Shown here piece after piece: positions 7,788 through 60,004 of a stretch of 64,000 nucleotides of DNA (the first letter of the stretch is position 1; every line of letters begins with the position of its first letter). The position numbers and the translations under genes are program-made. The notes beneath the pieces were generated by a model. It was not told where the DNA came from and searched no databases. It was given only the letters and a program-made list of their open reading frames with translations. The stretch is from an uncultured Clostridia bacterium (lineage in GTDB: Bacteria > Bacillota > Clostridia > Oscillospirales > QAKW01): the NCBI GenBank assembly GCA_944385895.1, contig CALWYZ010000012.1:16347-80346 (forward strand). Direction: 5' to 3'.

Positions 7788-10700
7788 TTATTTCATCAAA
7801 GTTATAACAGGACTTTTTAAAATACCGAACTTTTTCAGATTGTATTCGTAGCTCCAGTCGTCACTGCCTGTACGCCATACATTTGGTCCGAACCAGCGCT
7901 GTGACGTATTTACACTGTGAAGAGCGCCGAAGCTGTTATGGCGGTTTCCGAATATTGTAAGTTCAAGTTTATGCTTACCCTTTGTCACATTTTCAATAAT
8001 ACAGTCATACGGAGGAAGAACTATGCTTCCCACACGCTCACCGTCAATGCTTACTCCTATCAGAGACCCCCGGTAATCTGATGCGTGTACCTTTACCGCA
8101 CCGTCACAAGGCATTTCGATTTCGGTGATATATGTCACATTGGCGCCATAAAAAGGCAAGCCTTGTGAAGTTATATCCCCAAAGCCTATTTTTGGGGATA
8201 AAGCCGCAATAATACTCTCACATCCGCAAACATGAACTCCGAAATCGCCCAGGATATAACACCATTCGACATTTGTCCGCTTACCGAACGGCAAATCAAG
8301 GACCAATATATTTTTTCCGGGCTTTATTTCAGGAAGTTTTACAGTTTTAATAGACCGGTCGGTAAAATATCCTATCACATTGTTTGGCACGGTCTGACCG
8401 TTAAGATGTATAGTTACTTTTTCGGCATCTTCCAACGCAAGCAGTGCATTTTTTACTGAAATTTCGCTTTCAAACTGATAACGCAGATGCAAAATATGCG
8501 TCTCCGGCTCCTTTTTCATCGTATATGGCTGAGCCAGAGCACCGGTACGACCGGGGTAATCCAGAAGCTTTCTGAATTTGTTGTCAATTCTCAGCACATC
8601 CTCTTTAGGCTGATAATCACCATTGTCAAATGCGTATTCTGCAATATCAAGCAACAAAACATTTTTTTCGCTTAACTTATAATCCACAGCAGACTTTATA
8701 TCATACTTGTCAAGTTCAACAAATTCTTTTTTATGAGGTATGACAGTATCGCAATACGACACAAGTTTTATAAGCAGACTGTCAAGACAATTCAGTTCTC
8801 TTGAAATAACAGTATTACCGTTTTCATATGTACTTTTAATCGGACGTATATCGCCTGTCATTGTATCATACTCAATCGGTGTAAACTTGCCTTTAACAGA
8901 TATTATAACGCTATCTGCAGAAACGACATCATATTGCGTGCCCACGGCATGTCTGCCGCTTTCAGGTTTTTTGCAGTGCGCAACAAACAGCCATCTGCAA
9001 TCTGTATCCTGGCGGTAATTATAAATAAGATTACTTGCTTCATTTCCATTTTTAAAGCTTAAACCGACAGTTCTGAACTTAGCAAGCGCATCGCAAATAG
9101 ATGCCCTGTCAAAGCTTACATTAGTACTATTATCAAACAACGTTTTGCAGCCGCTGCTTTTTACACCGTCAATATATTCCGGACAGCTGCCTGCAAATAT
9201 AACCTTTCCGCCTGCCGCGGCAAAGGCTTCCAAATATTTCACAGTGGATTTTCTGAGTGTCAGACAGCCCGGTATAACTATAGCGTCATAACTCATTTTT
9301 CCTACTGATTTTGGATTTGCAGAATCTGACATTACCGGCAGCTGTGATTCGCATATATAATCAAAATCCAAGTGTGATTCAAGAAGCCATGATGTGATAT
9401 TTTCAAAACCGGATTCAAGAGCGTTAACCTGAACGGACATCTGTGAGTTAGGACCGGCACAAATCCAGTAGCTTTCAACCGGATGAATAACACCGATCTT
9501 AACGATAGGAACACCACGTGTAAGTGCTGTATTGATACGTGCAAAGTGGTTTTCTATAATGGGATATTCCTTATACCAAGGCGACTGATATCCGATGGCT
9601 GCCGGATAATCACGTTTTGCCTCTCCCGCCATTGAAAGCCATGCCAGATGCGGCACTCGCACAGTAACCCCCAGCGCCGCCTGCCAGTCACCCTGAAATT
9701 TATGACCCCTGAAGTCAAAATCCCAATTAGTAACTCCGTAAAGCTCAGATAGCATACCCTCTTTTCCGTATTGATGTACAGCTGACTGGGTCTGCTTTGC
9801 AGTCGTAAGCTCAATTTCATCACATAGCATATCAATTCCCGGTATGCCGAACTTTCCGTAACTGCGCATGGTTTCTCCGCATGTTATAGACTGGCTCTCA
9901 AGACCGGGCTCTCGCAGAAGATGGCCGGTAAACGATATTTTATGGCTGTCGCACCACTGCCCGATCTGGCCGCAGAAATTAACAGAAAACTGCTCTGCAG
10001 CAAAATCAAAGTAGTTATATTTTATAATAGAATCGCTTCTGTCACGCGTTATCCAGAAAAGCTTGGCAAGCTCATCCAATATATCATAACCGTAAGCCTT
10101 TTTGAAGTTTTCCTCAAAAAATCTTGTCCATCCGGTTATTATTCTGCCCTTATAATCGGGTGTCGGAATTGTGCAGCTGTCCTCATGATTCAAATTAGGC
10201 TCATCGGTAAATATCGCAGGTACACTTTTGTCAAATCGGTCACCTATCACATCGTTATAGCGGCTGTGCGTAACATTTATAAACTCCTGTATCGCCTCAG
10301 CATCCATTGCATCAACATATGTCTGTCCGTTGAACCATGTAGACTCTTTTTCGTTTACTGCATACGCATACCATTTTGTGCCTACGGCTTTATCATTTAT
10401 TCCTATTCTATTTCCGCTTAACAGATAACCGTCATTATCAAGAACTATATCATAACATGCAAGCAGATACGGCTCTCCTGTTTCAATCGCCTGAGCTTTA
10501 GGTGTATTCCAGCCCTTATCCTCAGTAAACAACGCAAGACGCTTGCGACGAAACTTTTTATTTACAGTGACTTTTCCGCCGGCAGGTCCTGATGACCAGC
10601 GGTCCTCATCATACAGCCATGCAAGCATTTCTTCCTGTTCTGCTTTGTCACAGCATGCTTTGATCATTTCCATAAACTCATCACCCAGATACTCGGTATC

Positions 10701-44794: not shown

Positions 44795-47431
44795 ATGTCA
44801 AAAAAATTCGTTTATCTTTTCAGCGAAGGAAATGCCACAATGAGAAATCTTCTCGGCGGTAAAGGCGCAAACCTTGCTGAAATGACGAATCTCGGTCTTC
44901 CGGTACCGCAGGGCTTTACCATTACAACAGAGGCCTGCACTCAGTATTATGAAGACGGCAAAAAGATCAACGATGAAATCCAGGCTCAGATCATGGAATA
45001 TATCGTCAAAATGGAAGAAATCACTGGCAAAAAATTTGGCGATATGGAAAATCCGCTTCTCGTTTCTGTTCGTTCCGGCGCACGTGCTTCAATGCCGGGT
45101 ATGATGGACACCATACTCAACCTTGGTCTTAACGAACAGGTCGTTGAAGTAATGGCTAAAAAGTCCGGAAATCCGCGTTGGGCTTGGGACTGTTACAGAA
45201 GATTTATCCAGATGTATTCCGACGTAGTTATGGAAGTCGGCAAAAAATATTTTGAAGAGCTTATTGATAAAATGAAAGCCGAAAAAGGCGTTACTCAGGA
45301 CGTTGAACTGACAGCTGATGACCTTAAAGAGCTTGCCAATCAATTCAAAGCTGAATATAAAGAAAAAATCGGTGCAGAATTTCCGACTGATCCTAAAGAG
45401 CAGCTCATGGGCGCTATCAAAGCTGTATTCCGTTCATGGGACAACCCCAGAGCAAATGTTTACAGACGTGATAATGATATTCCTTATTCATGGGGAACTG
45501 CGGTAAACGTACAGATGATGGCATTCGGCAACATGGGCGAGACTTCCGGTACCGGCGTTGCCTTTACACGTAACCCTGCAACCGGCGAGAAAAAGCTGTT
45601 TGGTGAATTTCTTATGAACGCTCAGGGCGAGGACGTTGTCGCCGGTGTACGTACACCCCAGACTATCGATCAGCTCAAGGACGTTATGCCGGAAGTTTAC
45701 AATCAGTTTGTTGAGATCTGCAAAAAACTTGAAAATCACTACCGTGACATGCAGGACATGGAGTTTACAATCGAAGATAAAAAGCTCTACATGCTGCAGA
45801 CAAGAAACGGAAAAAGAACAGCTGCTGCCGCTCTCAAAATCGCATGTGACCTTGTTGACGAGGGCATGATCTCAGACAAAGAGGCAGTTGCCATGATAGA
45901 TCCCCGTAACCTCGATGCACTTTTGCATCCTCAGTTTGATGCCGCTGCTCTCAAAGCTACCACACCGGTAGCTCGTGCACTTGCAGCCTCTCCCGGCGCT
46001 GCCTACGGTAAGATAGTATTTACTGCCGACGATGCAAAAGCATGGGCAGAAAGGGGCGAAAAAGTTGTCCTTGTTCGTCTTGAGACATCTCCGGAGGATA
46101 TCGAGGGCATGAAAGCTTCTCAGGGTATACTTACTGTCCGCGGAGGTATGACATCTCATGCTGCCGTTGTTGCACGTGGTATGGGTACATGCTGCGTATC
46201 AGGATGTTCTGAGATTGCAATGGATGAAGAAAACAAAAAGTTTGTACTTGCCGGTAAGACTTATTCCGAGGGCGATTATATCTCAATAGACGGTTCAACA
46301 GGCGCAATATATGATGGTATAATCCCCACCGTTGACGCTTCTATAGGCGGTGAATTCGGCAGAATCATGGCCTGGGCGGACAAATACAGAAAGCTTAAAG
46401 TAAGAACCAATGCTGACACACCTGCTGATGCAAAGCGCGCATTTTCACTCGGTGCTGAGGGTATCGGACTTTGCCGTACAGAACACATGTTCTTTGAGGG
46501 CGACAGAATTGCCGCGTTCAGAGAGATGATCTGCTCTGACACAGTAGAGGAAAGAGAAGCGGCACTGGCTAAAATACTTCCCACTCAGCAGGGCGACTTT
46601 GAAAAACTCTATGAAGCAATGGAGGGCAAATCTGTTACGATCCGCTTCCTTGATCCGCCTCTGCACGAATTTGTTCCTACAGAGGAAAAGGATATCGAGC
46701 TGCTTGCAAAAACACAGGGCAAGACCGTAGAACAGATCAAAAATATCATTACCTCACTTCACGAGTTTAACCCAATGATGGGTCACCGCGGATGCCGTCT
46801 TGCAGTTACCTATCCGGAAATCGCAGCAATGCAGACAAGAGCCGTTATCCGCGCCGCTATCAATGTCAAGAAAGCTCATCCCGACTGGAATATCGTACCT
46901 GAGATAATGATTCCTCTTGTAGGCGAAGTTAAAGAGCTTAAATATGTAAAAGATGTTGTCGTAAAAACAGCCGATCAGGAAATCAAAGACGCAGGCTCAG
47001 ATCTCAAATATGAAGTCGGTACAATGATCGAGATTCCAAGAGCATGTCTTACGGCCGATGAAATTGCAAAGGAAGCTGACTTCTTCTGCTTTGGTACAAA
47101 CGACCTCACACAGATGACATTCGGTTTCAGCCGTGATGACGCCGGAAAATTCCTCGGCGCGTACTATGACGCTAAAATTTACGAATATGATCCGTTTGCA
47201 AAACTTGATCAGACCGGTGTAGGCAAACTCATGGAAATGGCTGTTAAAATGGGTCACGAGGTTAAACCTACGCTTCACTGCGGCATATGCGGTGAGCATG
47301 GCGGTGATCCCTCTTCAGTTGAATTCTGCCATAAGATAGGTCTTGATTATGTATCTTGCTCACCTTTCCGTGTTCCGATTGCACGTCTTGCCGCTGCGCA
47401 GGCTGCTATTAAAGAGCAGGGAAACAAGTAA
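44795..47431 (+). CDS. ppdK: Pyruvate, phosphate dikinase
   Basis: The start is at ATG 44795, after GGAGGT. The phospho-His loop reads 'GGMTSHAAVVARGMG', and the catalytic Cys region reads 'CGICGEHGGDP'. About 878 aa. Confidence 0.95.
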   Translation: MSKKFVYLFSEGNATMRNLLGGKGANLAEMTNLGLPVPQGFTITTEACTQYYEDGKKINDEIQAQIMEYIVKMEEITGKKFGDMENPLLVSVRSGARASMPGMMDTILNLGLNEQVVEVMAKKSGNPRWAWDCYRRFIQMYSDVVMEVGKKYFEELIDKMKAEKGVTQDVELTADDLKELANQFKAEYKEKIGAEFPTDPKEQLMGAIKAVFRSWDNPRANVYRRDNDIPYSWGTAVNVQMMAFGNMGETSGTGVAFTRNPATGEKKLFGEFLMNAQGEDVVAGVRTPQTIDQLKDVMPEVYNQFVEICKKLENHYRDMQDMEFTIEDKKLYMLQTRNGKRTAAAALKIACDLVDEGMISDKEAVAMIDPRNLDALLHPQFDAAALKATTPVARALAASPGAAYGKIVFTADDAKAWAERGEKVVLVRLETSPEDIEGMKASQGILTVRGGMTSHAAVVARGMGTCCVSGCSEIAMDEENKKFVLAGKTYSEGDYISIDGSTGAIYDGIIPTVDASIGGEFGRIMAWADKYRKLKVRTNADTPADAKRAFSLGAEGIGLCRTEHMFFEGDRIAAFREMICSDTVEEREAALAKILPTQQGDFEKLYEAMEGKSVTIRFLDPPLHEFVPTEEKDIELLAKTQGKTVEQIKNIITSLHEFNPMMGHRGCRLAVTYPEIAAMQTRAVIRAAINVKKAHPDWNIVPEIMIPLVGEVKELKYVKDVVVKTADQEIKDAGSDLKYEVGTMIEIPRACLTADEIAKEADFFCFGTNDLTQMTFGFSRDDAGKFLGAYYDAKIYEYDPFAKLDQTGVGKLMEMAVKMGHEVKPTLHCGICGEHGGDPSSVEFCHKIGLDYVSCSPFRVPIARLAAAQAAIKEQGNK

Positions 47432-47568: not shown

Positions 47569-47606
47569 AATCCCCGTACTTCCGAAAGAGGTACGGGGAT
47601 TTTTCA
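47569..47606 (+). terminator. Rho-independent terminator downstream of ppdK (138 nt after the stop)
   Basis: AATCCCCGTAC-ttccgaaagag-GTACGGGGATT followed by TTTT. Confidence 0.8.
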
Positions 47607-47615
47607 AAATATGTA

Positions 47616-47643
47616 TTGACATTTTCAAAAACCGTGATATACT
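47616..47643 (+). promoter_or_regulatory. Near-consensus sigma-A promoter driving the NTase-tnpV block
   Basis: TTGACA, a 16-nt spacer, then TATACT, beginning 10 nt after the ppdK terminator. Confidence 0.65.
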
Positions 47644-47699
47644 GTAACGATTTAACGCAAAGTTAAATGGGTGGCATGGGAAAAAGAAAGGAATATACA

Positions 47700-48347
47700 A
47701 TGTACGAATATGTAACAAAGAAAGAATATGCCCCCGTCAAGGTAAAACTTGAAAGCATATTAAGGCGTATCCAACAGATAATGGCATCCGATTATGAATT
47801 GGAGTTCAAATATGAATTGATCGGAAGTGGTAAGCGTCATTTAATAACTCGAATCAAAGATGGAAATAAAGGATTTGATTTCGACTATAATTTGATTATT
47901 CCTCATCCCGGTCAAGGTTATCACTACAAGGCGGATGTTATAAAAAGCGATTTTATTGAAGCTTTCAAAATTGCGTTGAAAGGCACACAGTATTCATTCC
48001 CAAAAGATTCGACATCTGCAATCACAATTAAGATGGTCGATAAAGTAAACAATAAAATCAAATACAGTTGTGATTTTGCCATCATGTATTATGATGAAAA
48101 TGATGGTTGTGACGGCTATATGTATTTAAGGAATGACAAATCTACCGGCAATTATCACTTTGCTTTTCGTTCCTATAGCAGAACCGATACGAACGAAAAA
48201 CTTGCAGAGATTTTGGAATACGAGGATGGCTGGAATTGGATTAGAGATGAATATTTGAAACTAAAAAATAGAAACAAAAGCAATAAGCATTCTTTTTCAT
48301 TGTACATTGAAGCAATCAATAACATTTACAATCAGATGAATCAATAA
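47700..48347 (+). CDS. Minimal Pol-beta-superfamily nucleotidyltransferase, specificity unknown (OAS/CD-NTase-like motif spacing)
   Basis: 215 aa from ATG 47700. The catalytic signature is 'LIGSGKRHLITRIKDGNKGFDFDYNLII' (GS...DxD), with a third acidic site at 'YSCDFAIMYYDEND'. Confidence 0.6.
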   Translation: MYEYVTKKEYAPVKVKLESILRRIQQIMASDYELEFKYELIGSGKRHLITRIKDGNKGFDFDYNLIIPHPGQGYHYKADVIKSDFIEAFKIALKGTQYSFPKDSTSAITIKMVDKVNNKIKYSCDFAIMYYDENDGCDGYMYLRNDKSTGNYHFAFRSYSRTDTNEKLAEILEYEDGWNWIRDEYLKLKNRNKSNKHSFSLYIEAINNIYNQMNQ

Positions 48348-48415: not shown

Positions 48416-48781
48416 ATGAAATCATTATTCGAGCAAATAGGCAGTACATACACACAGGTGGGCGATTATCTGCTTCCCGATGTTGAACTGCCGGAAGAAA
48501 AGCCAATCGGCGTATGGGGTACACGACATCACAACTATCTGAGAAAAGCGAATCGTGTGTTTTTCAGTCAGTTAGTCATCAGCGGTAAGATGAATGACTA
48601 CCTTGCAGACATCGACAAGCAGGCAGAAGAAATGTTTTCTCAGTTGGTAAAACAACTTGCCGAGCGTGATGGCATTACAGAAATGCTCAAAGCCGCCGAC
48701 CAAATGGAGTGGGTACGGCGTATGAATATTGTCCGAGCAAAAGCGACCGAAATCGTCAACAAGGAGCTGATCTTTGTATGA
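48416..48781 (+). CDS. tnpV: Transposon-associated protein TnpV
   Basis: 121 aa. 'MKSLFEQIGSTYTQVGDYLLPDVELPEE...GVWGTRHHNYLRK...DQMEWVRRMNIVRAKATEIVNKELIF' closely follows the TnpV family of Tn4451-type clostridial elements as I remember it. RBS AAGGAGG is present. Confidence 0.8.
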   Translation: MKSLFEQIGSTYTQVGDYLLPDVELPEEKPIGVWGTRHHNYLRKANRVFFSQLVISGKMNDYLADIDKQAEEMFSQLVKQLAERDGITEMLKAADQMEWVRRMNIVRAKATEIVNKELIFV

Positions 48782-49038
48782 TAACGCTTGAAGACTTCTG
48801 GTACGGCAACATCAACCCGCACGAGCAGTTCCTTGAGGGCAACGAAAAGTTGAAGGAGTTGCTCCCCATCATGGCAAAGGACAGAGAAGAACTTTCAGCC
48901 GATCTTTCGCCGGAACAAACTGAATGGCTTGAAAAGTACGACGACATCATCAACGAAATGCATTCCAACGCCGAAATCGAGGCATTCAAGTACGGCTTCC
49001 GGTTTGCAACGGCACTTTTCATCGAATCAATTGCATAA
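48778..49038 (+). CDS. Small conserved protein usually paired with tnpV (function unknown)
   Basis: 86 aa from ATG 48778. There is an ATGA start/stop overlap with tnpV, and AAGGAG lies 11 nt upstream. 'LEDFWYGNINPHEQ' is the family-typical N-terminus. Confidence 0.6.
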   Translation: MITLEDFWYGNINPHEQFLEGNEKLKELLPIMAKDREELSADLSPEQTEWLEKYDDIINEMHSNAEIEAFKYGFRFATALFIESIA

Positions 49039-49046
49039 TACCATCA

Positions 49047-49075
49047 AAGCGGGGCTTCGGCTCCGCTTTTTCTTT
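49047..49075 (+). terminator. Terminator after the tnpV block
   Basis: AGCGGGGC-ttcg-GCTCCGCT (one G.U pair) followed by TTTTTCTTT. Confidence 0.7.
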
Positions 49076-49090
49076 ATCGAAAACGCAAAA

Positions 49091-49149
49091 GCGAATATTC
49101 GCTGAATATTCGAAAATTCTATTGACAAAGCGAATTTTCTGAGTATAAT
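49091..49149 (+). promoter_or_regulatory. Promoter with a palindromic operator array
   Basis: The promoter is TTGACA (49122), a 16-nt spacer, then TATAAT (49144). Upstream are the perfect 12-bp palindrome GCGAATATTCGC (49091-49102) and the adjacent TGAATATTCGA. A related GCGAATTTTC lies inside the spacer. Confidence 0.65.
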
Positions 49150-49192: not shown

Positions 49193-50488
49193 ATGAATTT
49201 TGAGACCGAGAATATTGAATTCAAATCTCAATTTACCGAAGAAATCTATAAAGAGGTCATTGCCTTTGCCAATACGGACGGGGGCATTGTGTATGTCGGA
49301 ATAGATAATGACGGGAATGCTGTCGGACTGACCGATGTAGATACCGAATATACCCGCATTACCAATGGCATCCGTGATGCTATCATGCCGGATGTCACAA
49401 TGTTCGTGCGCTTTACCGTGCAGGAAAACAAGGTAGTCCGTATTACCGTGAGCGAAGGCAGTAACAAGCCGTACTATCTCAAAGGAAAAGGATTGAAGCC
49501 GAGCGGCGTATATGTTCGTCAAGGCACTTCCAGCGTTCCCGCATCTCCCGAACAAATTCGCCAAATGATAAAAGACAGCGACGGCGATACCTTTGAAGAA
49601 ATACGCTCTCTTGAACAAGATTTGACTTTTGATGCCGCCGCAATCGCCTTTAAGCGTTACGGCGTGGAATTCAGCACCGAGAAATACCGTGCGCTCTGCA
49701 TGACGCAGAAGAACGATGATATTTACACAAACCTTGCCCTGCTCCTTTCCGATCAGTGTGCCCACACGACCAAAATCGCCGTATTCAGCGACGATGCCCG
49801 CACCATGTTCCGTGACAGTAAAGAATTCAGCGGCTCTATCTTAAAGCAGTTTGAAGATGCCGTCAATTATCTTGCACTTTGCAACAAAACCAGTTCGGTC
49901 ATTAAAGGCGTAGTGAGAACGGATAAGCAGGATTACCCGGAGGAAGCGATCCGTGAGGCACTGCTGAACGCTATCGTTCACCGTGATTACAGCTTCAGCG
50001 GCAGTATCATTATCAATGTTACCGACCGTATGATGGAATTCATCTCACTCGGTGGTCTTCTGCCCGGTCTTTCCCCCGATGATATTCGCTCCGGTATTTC
50101 TCAGCCGAGAAACAAAAATCTTGCCGAAGTATTCCACCGCCTGCGCCTGATCGAAAGCTACGGCACCGGCATCCGCAGAATATTCAATTTGTATACCGCT
50201 TGCTCGGATCAACCGCAAATTGAAGTGACATCCAATACTTTCAAAATCGTTTTGCCGAATATGAACGCCGCGCCTGCGGCAGAGCCGGATAATACTGCGG
50301 AAATAACTCCGCAGATGCAAAAGGTGCTTGACTTTATCAAGGCAAACGGACAGATCACCGAAAAAGAAATCAGCGACCTGCTCGGACTGAAAAAGACACG
50401 CACATTTACCGTCGCGAAGCAGATGCGTGATCTCGGACTGATCAAAGTCGTCGGCAGAGGCGATAGCAAGAAATATATGATGAAATAA
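49193..50488 (+). CDS. AlbA_2 (Schlafen-like) + HATPase_c_4 + C-terminal wHTH protein (often mis-annotated as RecG-like)
   Basis: 'ENIEFKSQFTEEIYKEVIAFANTDGGIVYVGIDNDGNAVGL' is the AlbA_2 region. 'IREALLNAIVHRDY' belongs to HATPase_c_4. The wHTH reads 'MQKVLDFIKANGQITEKEISDLLGLKKTRTFTVAKQMRDLGLIKVVGRG'. Confidence 0.8.
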   Translation: MNFETENIEFKSQFTEEIYKEVIAFANTDGGIVYVGIDNDGNAVGLTDVDTEYTRITNGIRDAIMPDVTMFVRFTVQENKVVRITVSEGSNKPYYLKGKGLKPSGVYVRQGTSSVPASPEQIRQMIKDSDGDTFEEIRSLEQDLTFDAAAIAFKRYGVEFSTEKYRALCMTQKNDDIYTNLALLLSDQCAHTTKIAVFSDDARTMFRDSKEFSGSILKQFEDAVNYLALCNKTSSVIKGVVRTDKQDYPEEAIREALLNAIVHRDYSFSGSIIINVTDRMMEFISLGGLLPGLSPDDIRSGISQPRNKNLAEVFHRLRLIESYGTGIRRIFNLYTACSDQPQIEVTSNTFKIVLPNMNAAPAAEPDNTAEITPQMQKVLDFIKANGQITEKEISDLLGLKKTRTFTVAKQMRDLGLIKVVGRGDSKKYMMK

Positions 50489-59112: not shown

Positions 59113-59553
59113 ATGGACAACCGATCTAAAGAAGCCAGAAGTAAAAATATGTCACACATTCCGAGTAAGAATACAAAGCCTGAGGAAACCGTACGCAAGT
59201 TTCTTTTCAGCCAAGGTTTCAGATATCGGAAAAATGTGTCTTCTCTTCCGGGAAAACCGGATATTGTTCTTCCAAAATATAAGACTGTTGTATTCGTAAA
59301 CGGATGCTTTTGGCATGGGCACGAGGAATGTAAATGGTTTGTTCCGCCTAAAACCAATACGGGATTTTGGAATGCCAAATTCAAGTATAATATTGAGCGC
59401 GACAAAAGAAACTATTCTAAGCTTGAAGAGATGGGTTGGAAAGTAATAATAGTATGGGAATGCGAAATTAGGCATAACAAACCTGTAGACAGACTTCAAA
59501 TGCTTATTGGGGAGATAAATCGTGGAAGCGGAAAAAATGCTACATATCGCTAA
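59113..59553 (+). CDS. vsr: Very short patch repair endonuclease
   Basis: 'SKNMSHIPSKNTKPEETVRKFLFSQGFRYRKNVSSLPGKPDIVLPKYKTVVFVNGCFWHGHE'; 146 aa. Confidence 0.92.
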   Translation: MDNRSKEARSKNMSHIPSKNTKPEETVRKFLFSQGFRYRKNVSSLPGKPDIVLPKYKTVVFVNGCFWHGHEECKWFVPPKTNTGFWNAKFKYNIERDKRNYSKLEEMGWKVIIVWECEIRHNKPVDRLQMLIGEINRGSGKNATYR

Positions 59554-60004
59554 AACATCACTTAATATGCTTCAAACTGTTGAAGATCAAGACCAAGTAG
59601 AAGTGCTGTGGATTGCGGCTATAACGGCATTGCGTGGGGTTGGTCATGTGTTGGCAAAGGTAGACAAATATTCCAATACTATTTTATCTCAAAAAATAGA
59701 TGATTGGTGGATCGACCTCAACAAAAATAAAACGATAGATAAAAACCGTATATTTTTTGATTTCATTGACAAAGAGCGTAACGATACTATCAAGGTGTTA
59801 TCTATACACTACGACAAGGGCATGCAAGATATATTAATTATTGAAGATATCAATGAAAAAGAAGCATATTTTGTGAACGATGTCATCCCGCAATTAATAT
59901 ATATTCCAATGACAGACGGTTATTACGAAGGTGAAGATATTCGAGATTTAATTGAAATGGCTATTGAGTGGTGGGAAAAACAAATCGAAGAATTAAAACG
60001 CTAA
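59537..60004 (+). CDS. Hypothetical protein, translationally coupled to vsr
   Basis: 155 aa from ATG 59537, or 160 aa from GTG 59522. It overlaps the vsr 3' end by 17 nt. I recognise no motif. Confidence 0.5.
   Translation: MLHIAKTSLNMLQTVEDQDQVEVLWIAAITALRGVGHVLAKVDKYSNTILSQKIDDWWIDLNKNKTIDKNRIFFDFIDKERNDTIKVLSIHYDKGMQDILIIEDINEKEAYFVNDVIPQLIYIPMTDGYYEGEDIRDLIEMAIEWWEKQIEELKR

Follow-up and report, generated by a model that had tools for sequence, protein, structure and literature searches.

Enzymes of the cGAS type are central to immunity in bacteria as well as in animals, and the bacterial representatives known to date come with effectors. Minimal nucleotidyltransferases (MNT) encoded 5' of a HEPN gene act as antitoxins, and Abi2, AbiD and AbiF are HEPN proteins as well (PMC3710099). 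For the AbiF HEPN toxins, the neutraliser is an upstream non-coding RNA (PMC12373285, PMC13064643). Constitutive signalling by nucleotidyltransferases (NTases) has precedents in the systems Hailong and Panoptes (PMC13434031, PMC12657218). The Hailong enzyme HalB makes a Tyr-primed oligo-dA constitutively, which holds the HalA channel closed, and thus offers a precedent for a constitutive NTase acting as negative regulator (PMC13434031). Here we describe the gene of a 215-residue NTase located at positions 47700..48347 (+ strand) within a stretch of 64,000 nucleotides (nt) from an uncultured Clostridia bacterium (GenBank contig CALWYZ010000012.1), hereafter the window. The protein is predicted to adopt a minimal cGAS/DncV-like fold, and its gene lies in a mobile element behind a near-consensus promoter and a candidate structured leader RNA. 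The NTase family, this cassette of promoter and leader RNA, and the gene pairs that a sister clade forms with Abi2 proteins appear to be undescribed in the libraries and papers searched.

A family of small cGAS/DncV-like nucleotidyltransferases

The frame of 215 amino acids (aa) begins with an ATG at 47700 and closes with a TAA ending at 48347. It had been noted by the first-pass annotation as an open reading frame (ORF) under a near-consensus TTGACA-16-TATACT promoter, and both are present as stated. A mechanical ORF call extends the gene to an earlier ATG at 47667 (226 aa). The start was placed at 47700 because the homologues begin with MYEYV and because a conserved non-coding motif, out of frame at other loci, encloses the upstream ATG. 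The Shine-Dalgarno core AAGGA (47688..47692, + strand) precedes the ATG by 7 nt, and an AAAGGAG-like element is aligned at this place in most loci. Many public gene calls (P0001, P0008, P0017, P0027, P0064, P0068 and others; 226-243 aa) start at an AUG within the RNA motif; their additional N-termini, of the type MGGMG... or MEAWAK..., are probably artefacts of annotation.

Homologues at E<=1e-3 numbered 446 after clustering at 90% identity, nearly all of 210-240 aa and without a Pfam domain or an informative name. A profile search of 1.84 billion representatives enlarged the family to 842 clusters at 50% identity, again at E<=1e-3. Judged by its homologues, the ORF is a real gene, far beyond chance. 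The 31 close and 13 diverse homologues retain G42, S43, D60, D62 and D125 without exception, and across 95 diverse sequences the conservation of these residues is at least 90%. Two tyrosines are likewise retained, Y185 in all 95 diverse sequences and Y152 throughout the 31 close and 13 diverse homologues. The predicted strands E37-40, E59-66 and E119-131 carry G42-S43, D60-F-D62 and D125, respectively, and hence display the pattern of the Pol-beta superfamily, with hG[GS], [DE]h[DE]h on the next strand and a third acidic residue on a later strand. The Pol-beta triad had been proposed from two peptide strings; both are present (residues 41-67 and 122-135), and the catalytic acids persist family-wide in a proper alignment. 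By these residues, the window protein is a catalytically intact NTase of an undescribed family.

A few relatives depart from the common length. P0143, P0205, P0214 and P0217 (376-444 aa) are tandem duplications in which the C-terminal copy keeps GS, DxD and the third Asp, while the N-terminal copy has the third Asp replaced by N, N, C or H. Such a union of pseudo-enzyme and enzyme hints at a dimeric function, and degenerate and intact tandem copies recall OAS2 and OAS3. A scan of the fused or long relatives for additional domains returned no Pfam domain; they are tandem duplications or carry C-terminal extensions. In P0230 and P0241, the C-terminal extension comprises about 150 aa without a Pfam match, and P0129 combines a degenerate triad with a repetitive tail. 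Isoelectric point and net charge, compared between the NTase clades, did not discriminate them.

An AlphaFold2 model of the window NTase, built on 31 sequences, reached a mean pLDDT of 83 and a pTM of 0.79. It consists of a long N-terminal helix, a sheet with GS, DxD and the third Asp, and three C-terminal helices. All of the 50 best Foldseek matches in the PDB were CD-NTase (cGAS/DncV-like nucleotidyltransferase), cGAS or DncV structures (E 1.6e-6 to 1.4e-3, query template modelling (TM) scores 0.39-0.58), led by CdnB of Bacteroides fragilis (BfCdnB, PDB: 7ljo; E=1.6e-6, query TM 0.58). NTase core and C-terminal helical domain of the cGAS/DncV type are thus both present in the model, with partial coverage since the protein is shorter than its targets. 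The distance between D62 and D125 is 63 residues, compared with 60 between D133 and D193 of DncV (catalytic residues of DncV taken from PDB titles). A Foldseek search of a viral library retrieved one uncharacterised giant-virus protein. In the model, the window protein has the fold of cGAS, DncV and the CD-NTases. At this level, the previously proposed likeness to OAS, cGAS and CD-NTases over the compact MNT and KNTase enzymes finds support, and neither KNTase nor Lnu is among the 50 best matches. The spacing of the motifs, on which that likeness had been based, is not diagnostic. Between the serine of the GS motif and the first acidic residue there are about 12 residues in cGAS and OAS1, as in the MNTs, and about 17 are known only from DncV-like enzymes; the window NTase has 17. 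The assignment as cGAS/DncV-like therefore rests on the fold search and not on the spacing.

Sequence models did not place the protein. Single-protein searches of Pfam, NCBIfam, PADLOC, PHROGs and the PDB sequences gave nothing meaningful, matches to Herpes_glycoH_C, Teb2 and CasC being sub-threshold noise. The CD-NTase models (Pfam SMODS and Mab-21, PADLOC cyclase) had no match to the window protein at E<=10. The MNT models NTP_transf_2 and Polbeta, which describe proteins of about 100-150 aa, had no Pfam match to this protein of 215 aa. AbiEii/MenT (DUF1814) was absent from the Pfam and PADLOC results and from the 50 best fold matches. The searches with SMODS, NTP_transf_2 and DUF1814 that had been suggested to classify the enzyme thus left it unassigned. 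Profile searches of the PDB with the close (31 sequences) and the broad (95 sequences) alignment returned antibody noise and the entries 8ysc and 8ysn, titled 'Nucleotidyltransferase', at a non-significant E=0.4. The PADLOC model 'oligonucleotide-cyclase' matched one relative from the sister clade weakly (E=0.003), over its GS/DxD half. By any sequence model used, the window NTase falls outside the CD-NTase, MNT, Lnu/ANT and AbiEii families. No relevant description of a minimal or standalone CD-NTase emerged from a first search of the literature.

Similar to the CD-NTases CdnB, DncV, CdnE and CdnG, the window NTase carries GS...DxD...D on equivalent strands of the same fold, with about 60 residues between the second and third Asp (as in DncV), a helix before the GS strand and a helical C-terminal region. 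In contrast, CD-NTases measure about 270-450 aa, roughly twice the 215 aa found here, and the TM-scores of the comparison are only 0.4-0.58. The window NTase further differs from the CD-NTases of cyclic-oligonucleotide-based anti-phage signalling systems (CBASS) in lacking any match to their sequence models and in having neither an effector nor Cap2/Cap3 or HORMA genes next to it, and from CD-NTases altogether in its dedicated leader RNA. Membership in the CD-NTase family, as distinct from likeness in fold, is therefore not sustained. A family of about 840 clusters (50% identity) of half-size cGAS-like enzymes without protein effectors, residing on mobile elements of gut Firmicutes, would widen the known uses of this fold.

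The promoter and leader RNA cassette

A sigma-A-type promoter of the form TTGACA-16-nt spacer-TG-n-TATACT is located at 47616..47643 (+ strand), with TTGACA at 47616-47621, the TG of an extended -10 element at 47635-47636 and TATACT at 47638-47643; it scored 11/12 in a consensus scan. Being near consensus, it predicts strong transcription. Its position closely upstream of the gene agrees with the first-pass annotation, which had counted 57 nt to the ATG; the distance from the -10 hexamer to the ATG at 47700 is 56 nt. The arrangement recurs across the family. When the 160 nt 5' of the gene were scanned at 85 non-redundant family loci, 60 of them showed a promoter of at least 10/12, nearly always with a perfect TTGACA, whereas shuffled controls averaged 8.3. 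The end of the -10 hexamer lies 52-69 nt before the ATG in all but a few loci.

The space between promoter and ribosome-binding site is occupied by a leader RNA motif (47644..47684, + strand), which the covariance model R1 recognises in the window with 47.7 bits (E=3.6e-9) and whose helix covaries. In the aligned leaders, the -10 hexamer is followed by 6 nt (consensus ATAAYG) and then by a hairpin of 7 bp; this fixed distance puts the predicted transcript start at the hairpin base, around 47649-47650, and the hairpin is accordingly predicted to form the 5' end of the mRNA. The window stem pairs 47650-47656 with 47662-47668 around a loop at 47657-47661, and the G-rich tail UGGGUGGCAUGGG occupies 47668-47680. 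Throughout the family, the tail 3' of the hairpin reads UGG-N-CGG-NNU-GGG with G positions at least 90% conserved, and leads through an A-rich spacer of variable length to the ribosome-binding site and the gene. The stem varies from locus to locus and yet pairs, for instance as AUUUAAC/GUUAAAU, AUACAAU/AUUGUAU or AUUCGGU/GCCGGAU.

Of the stem cells in the alignment, 95% are paired, compared with 80.5% in shuffles (none of 500 shuffles reached the observed value), and both sides have changed in 83 cells compared with 19.9. Compensatory changes affect five of the seven stem pairs. Sliding the partner strand by 1-3 columns lowers the pairing to 20-45%, and RNAalifold recovers the same helix. The hairpin is thermodynamically weak (-5 kcal/mol; its z of -0.21 is uninformative), and the evidence for the helix is that of covariation only.

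R1 was searched over 1.73 Mb (1.11 Mb and 0.62 Mb) on both strands. The 78 and 56 significant matches each lay immediately 5' of an NTase gene on the strand of that gene, many of them at loci absent from the set on which the model was built, and the second set showed 95.6% pairing. No matches occurred elsewhere in these 1.73 Mb, nor in the loci of the HEPN-paired sister clade described below. The motif is hence present in about 134 of about 143 loci without a protein partner (~94%) and in none of about 33 loci of the sister clade. Rfam 15 contained no match to the leader at E<=1 (2 kb searched) or at E<=10 (81 nt searched). IMG/VR, scanned with a loose DNA pattern for the leader, yielded 23 chance matches and one true motif, the pattern being too permissive to test exclusivity beyond the loci covered above.

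The tolerance of G-U pairs and the strand-specific matches argue for an RNA rather than a DNA operator. A palindromic operator was rejected on these grounds and because the stem covaries rather than being conserved. The string AUGG...AUGGG was also considered as a leader peptide or as an N-terminal extension of the NTase, and both were dismissed since indels shift its frame between loci. The leader RNA is thus a candidate for a new class of structured RNA, gene-specific in the sequence searched, strongly covarying and without an Rfam match, and it offers an experimental handle on the system.

On the protein side, all-against-all clustering of the neighbouring ORFs at the first 94 loci found no conserved partner; the second-largest neighbour cluster was an artefact of antisense ORFs within the NTase gene. 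Downstream of the NTase gene, neither a conserved motif nor a terminator was detected. The description of the gene as solitary was misleading, as about 94% of its partner-less relatives share the cassette of promoter and leader RNA. Of the suggestion that the enzyme works with something not adjacent, one half holds: there is no adjacent protein effector, but one partner, the RNA, is directly adjacent.

The HEPN-paired sister clade and possible functions

A clade of relatives that are 34-40% identical to the window protein (L088, L093, L116-L121, L124-L148 and L174, among them about 20 metagenome loci) is organised in gene dyads. In about 20 of the about 20 dyad-clade loci with enough downstream sequence, the NTase gene is followed by, and translationally coupled to, one for about 250 aa, the two sharing 13-43 nt across the NTase stop (e.g. 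L117:7977-8636 and 8593-9357). The six partner proteins tested all match Pfam Abi_2 (best E=4e-11) and PADLOC AbiD, and the string R-N-A-V-S-H, an Rx4H form of the HEPN motif Rx4-6H, is invariant in them. In a neighbour-joining tree, the dyad NTases form one clade, which is sister to the large partner-less clade that holds the window protein; further partner-less clades branch outside the two. The abiF RNA motif was not detected in seven dyad loci at Rfam gathering scores.

The order of the dyad genes, NTase 5' of HEPN, is that of the MNT-HEPN (type VII) toxin-antitoxin systems. Judged by this order, the place of the antitoxin to an AbiF-type toxin is taken by the dyad NTase. An NTase immediately 5' of a HEPN toxin gene is found in the sister clade only and not at the window locus. 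Both gene order and overlap with a HEPN RNase gene are shared with HepT-MntA (PMC3710099), whereas the MNT proteins are of about 100-150 aa and match the NTP_transf_2/MNT models, and the family described here is of about 215 aa, without such a match and with a fold nearer to cGAS and DncV. The HEPN protein of HepT-MntA belongs to DUF86/HepT, that of the dyads to the Abi2/AbiF family, and the window gene has no HEPN neighbour. The AbiF/AbiD type III systems (abiF motif, RF03085) share with the dyads the HEPN family and a presumed neutraliser encoded immediately upstream. They also resemble the NTase cassette, in that a sigma-A promoter drives a transcript beginning with a structured RNA (PMC12373285). 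The neutraliser upstream of AbiF is, in contrast, a non-coding RNA, while that of the dyads would be a protein, the NTase, and the NTase leader matches neither RF03085 nor any other Rfam entry. The dyads suggest a new mode of control for AbiF-type toxins, so far known as neutralised by non-coding RNA, and give a hint of orphan neutralisers that mobile elements may carry for anti-defence.

Two further contexts downstream of the NTase gene differ from the dyads. At L190, a protein of 506 aa without a Pfam match (L190:5868-7388) is encoded 247 nt downstream of a leader-bearing NTase gene; it contains the Rx4H-like string CRNAHFH and may be another HEPN-type neighbour. A distant partner-less subgroup from human gut metagenome contigs (L196-L202) carries a gene for a 151-aa protein 22 nt after the NTase gene, in which a NUDIX-box-like GGHIEKGES...REVYEETGL was recognised by eye.

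By analogy with these systems, we tentatively propose, with clearly less than even confidence, that the window NTase serves a conflict module as its neutralising or regulatory half and acts in trans for its mobile element. Mg2+ would be held by D60, D62 and D125 and the nucleoside triphosphate by G42-S43 and the C-terminal helices, and the nucleotides would be transferred onto a macromolecular target or joined to a short oligonucleotide that binds the target. In the dyads, the target would be the HEPN RNase, kept inactive either by nucleotidylation, as by MntA, or through a bound product as in Hailong (PMC13434031). HalB would be the precedent for a constitutive NTase that restrains a toxic effector, and the invariant Y185 and Y152 are of note in view of its product; the window family differs in the absence of a membrane-protein partner, and no HalB structure is among the 50 best fold matches. 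The partner-less and presumably strongly transcribed copies on mobile elements could then be orphan antitoxins or anti-Abi factors working in trans, so that the element or its new host is shielded from toxins of the Abi2/HEPN type. The leader RNA would set the dosage of the enzyme or serve as its RNA ligand.

Several observations weigh against this proposal. The functional clue derives from a sister clade with only 34-40% identity to the window protein, and neither a HEPN nor an Abi2 gene is present in the 64 kb of the window. Upon midpoint rooting, partner-less clades stand on both sides of the dyads, and the HEPN pairing may thus be derived rather than ancestral. The nearest folds are those of oligonucleotide synthases and not of protein adenylyltransferases of the MntA type. 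The leader shows no obvious expression platform: it has no terminator, the ribosome-binding site is not sequestered and the spacer length varies. Some family members lie without obvious mobile-element genes nearby, for example beside tpiA in L001. Finally, a copy of the same element in L098 (GCA_021623875.1) carries the NTase gene in a frameshifted form (L098:7235-7932, ORFs of 159 and 87 aa), which indicates that the gene is dispensable for the maintenance of the element.

A broader formulation, possible but somewhat unlikely in our judgement, describes a two-part RNA-protein module of mobile elements, in which a minimal cGAS/OAS-like NTase is joined to a dedicated 5' RNA (a new riboswitch or protein-ligand class) and in which this RNA and the Abi2-HEPN RNase are alternative partners. 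The NTase would either sense or act on RNA in the manner of OAS and cGAS, or silence AbiF-type HEPN immunity in trans as a counter-defence.

Other functions are conceivable for a protein of this fold. As a nucleotide-signal synthase, the enzyme would be a stripped-down CD-NTase or OAS that makes a cyclic or linear oligonucleotide for a receptor encoded elsewhere or in the host or a competitor. The product could also be a decoy or an inhibitory signal, and the leader could provide product feedback as a riboswitch, or activate the enzyme as an RNA ligand, as double-stranded RNA does for OAS. The best 50 structural matches, which are exclusively cGAS, DncV or CD-NTases, the long N-terminal helix before the GS strand as in cGAS and OAS, and the tandem relatives with a degenerate N-terminal and an intact C-terminal copy agree with this function, as do the weak cyclase match of a relative (E=0.003) and the 'Nucleotidyltransferase' entries 8ysc/8ysn, which align at the DxD strand although without significance (E=0.4). 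Hailong and Panoptes would be precedents for its constitutive action (PMC13434031, PMC12657218). We nevertheless regard a signal synthase as unlikely. At a threshold as lax as E<=10, the window protein is still missed by the SMODS, Mab-21 and cyclase models, and its 215 aa leave out much of the C-terminal domain with which CD-NTases shape the acceptor pocket. Across the first 94 loci, no conserved effector or receptor adjoins the NTase. The dyad partner is a bare Abi_2 HEPN domain that lacks a sensor of the CARF or SAVED type, and no riboswitch expression platform was recognised in the leader.

An RNA 3'-end nucleotidyltransferase, which would add nucleotides to tRNA or another RNA and thereby reverse or mask the damage done by a HEPN RNase toxin, appears quite improbable. 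In the dyads, such an enzyme would be an antidote that repairs the toxin damage, and on mobile elements a counter-defence, in analogy to the RNA repair of phage T4 against the anticodon nuclease PrrC. The link of the sister clade to an RNase toxin, the tie of the family to a structured RNA and the character of a Pol-beta-superfamily NTase with a helical C-terminal region would suit this role, and more speculatively so would the repeated UGGN elements in the leader tail, as UGGN pairs with the NCCA end of tRNA in T-box leaders. Against it stand the absence of CCA-adding enzymes, poly(A) polymerases and MenT/AbiEii from the 50 best fold matches, the lack of a Pfam match to PolyA_pol or NTP_transf_2, and the Rfam T-box models, which do not match the leader. 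We consider it very improbable that the gene is resistance cargo for an NTase of the Lnu/ANT type that modifies drugs or other small molecules, a function also named by the first-pass annotation; the leader would then serve as inducible attenuator. A single gene with its own strong promoter on a mobile element of gut Firmicutes would fit, resistance NTases belong to the same superfamily, and many resistance genes of Firmicutes have regulatory leaders. However, NCBIfam returned no family and Pfam a single sub-threshold chance match, in neither case a resistance NTase; the family had no match in 72,556 plasmids; and the fold resembles CD-NTases rather than KNTase or Lnu. The leader encodes no conserved peptide, its conserved AUG changing frame between loci, and the pairing of the sister clade with a HEPN toxin is hard to reconcile with drug modification.

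The mobile element and neighbouring genes

A serine-recombinase element has inserted in the 3' end of ppdK, and the NTase gene is the first that it carries inside its left end. The left end (47397..47431, + strand) is an element-borne copy of the last ~11 codons and the stop of ppdK, with the crossover region at about CACAGGCTGCTATTAAAG, as deduced from contigs in which the end is joined to a recombinase gene. The same block was found after ppdK in at least three chromosomal backgrounds (L094, L095 and L097). In L096, L100 and L102, it directly follows a large serine recombinase gene (Resolvase and Recombinase domains) that abuts the left end. The DNA upstream of the block in these three contigs keeps the last ~30 nt of ppdK and diverges just before CACAGGCTGC, from which it follows that the element inserts in the ppdK 3' end and brings its own replacement tail. 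The recombinase ORF crosses the joint by about 160 nt in L100 (~2735) and L102 (~2250) and ends about 15 nt past it in L096 (~6982). The recombinase-joined contigs fit excised circles or tandem copies. For the element copy studied here, the recombinase lies outside the window. A search for the empty insertion site by exact-protein look-up of ppdK yielded no record.

With tnpV, a large serine recombinase recognised through the joined ends and a site-specific insertion, the element has the features of the Tn4451 type, and the earlier placement of the NTase at the edge of a TnpV-bearing element is confirmed by the recurrent block and the joined contigs. The comparison with the catP slot of Tn4451 is not supported, since the NTase lies upstream of tnpV, between it and the element end, and not downstream. 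A hairpin CCCCGTAC...GTACGGGG followed by T5 (47572..47604, + strand), without a difference between the eight aligned loci, the recombinase-joined ones among them, is a likely terminator; it was unlisted by the terminator scan because its loop exceeds 8 nt. The hairpin-T5, the promoter and the NTase gene are all borne by the element, and the hairpin likely insulates the cassette from read-through out of ppdK or the recombinase gene.

Downstream of the NTase follows tnpV (48416..48781, + strand; Pfam TnpV, E=4.9e-43), whose stop codon is overlapped by a DUF6809 gene (48778..49038, + strand; Pfam DUF6809, E=4e-18), called likewise in identical loci. The scan listed no terminator-like site between the NTase stop at 48347 and the tnpV start at 48416, and a terminator was listed at 49046-49069, where an operon of NTase, tnpV and DUF6809 probably ends. 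Besides TnpV and the DUF6809 protein, an AlbA_2/HATPase_c_4 protein neighbours the NTase in the window. At the Pfam level, no CBASS-type effector (patatin, 2TM, endonuclease, TIR, SAVED etc.) was found beside the window NTase, which accords with the earlier remark that no effector is nearby.

The 80 genome loci of the family derive mostly from gut Clostridia (Lachnospiraceae, Oscillospiraceae and Christensenellales), joined by Bacilli/Mollicutes-like metagenome-assembled genomes. Nineteen IMG/VR contigs carried the family, and the search of phage genomes gave one weak match to a phage contig only. Mobile-element genes recur next to the NTase, among them tandem serine recombinases directly upstream, RelB/ParE with a ParB-N6 methyltransferase, VirB4/TraG, PrgI, relaxases, DUF6076, tyrosine integrases, Fic and AAA_21. 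The outer side is often formed by housekeeping genes such as tuf/fusA, tpiA or ppdK.

Two minor features of the window may be added. An ORF of 160 aa without a Pfam match (59522-60004) overlaps the end of vsr. Directly after the terminator of NTase, TnpV and DUF6809, a 12/12 consensus promoter, TTGACA-16-TATAAT at 49122-49149, drives the gene at 49193-50488 for the AlbA_2 (Schlafen-like) protein, which combines this domain with HATPase_c_4 as well as a winged helix-turn-helix.

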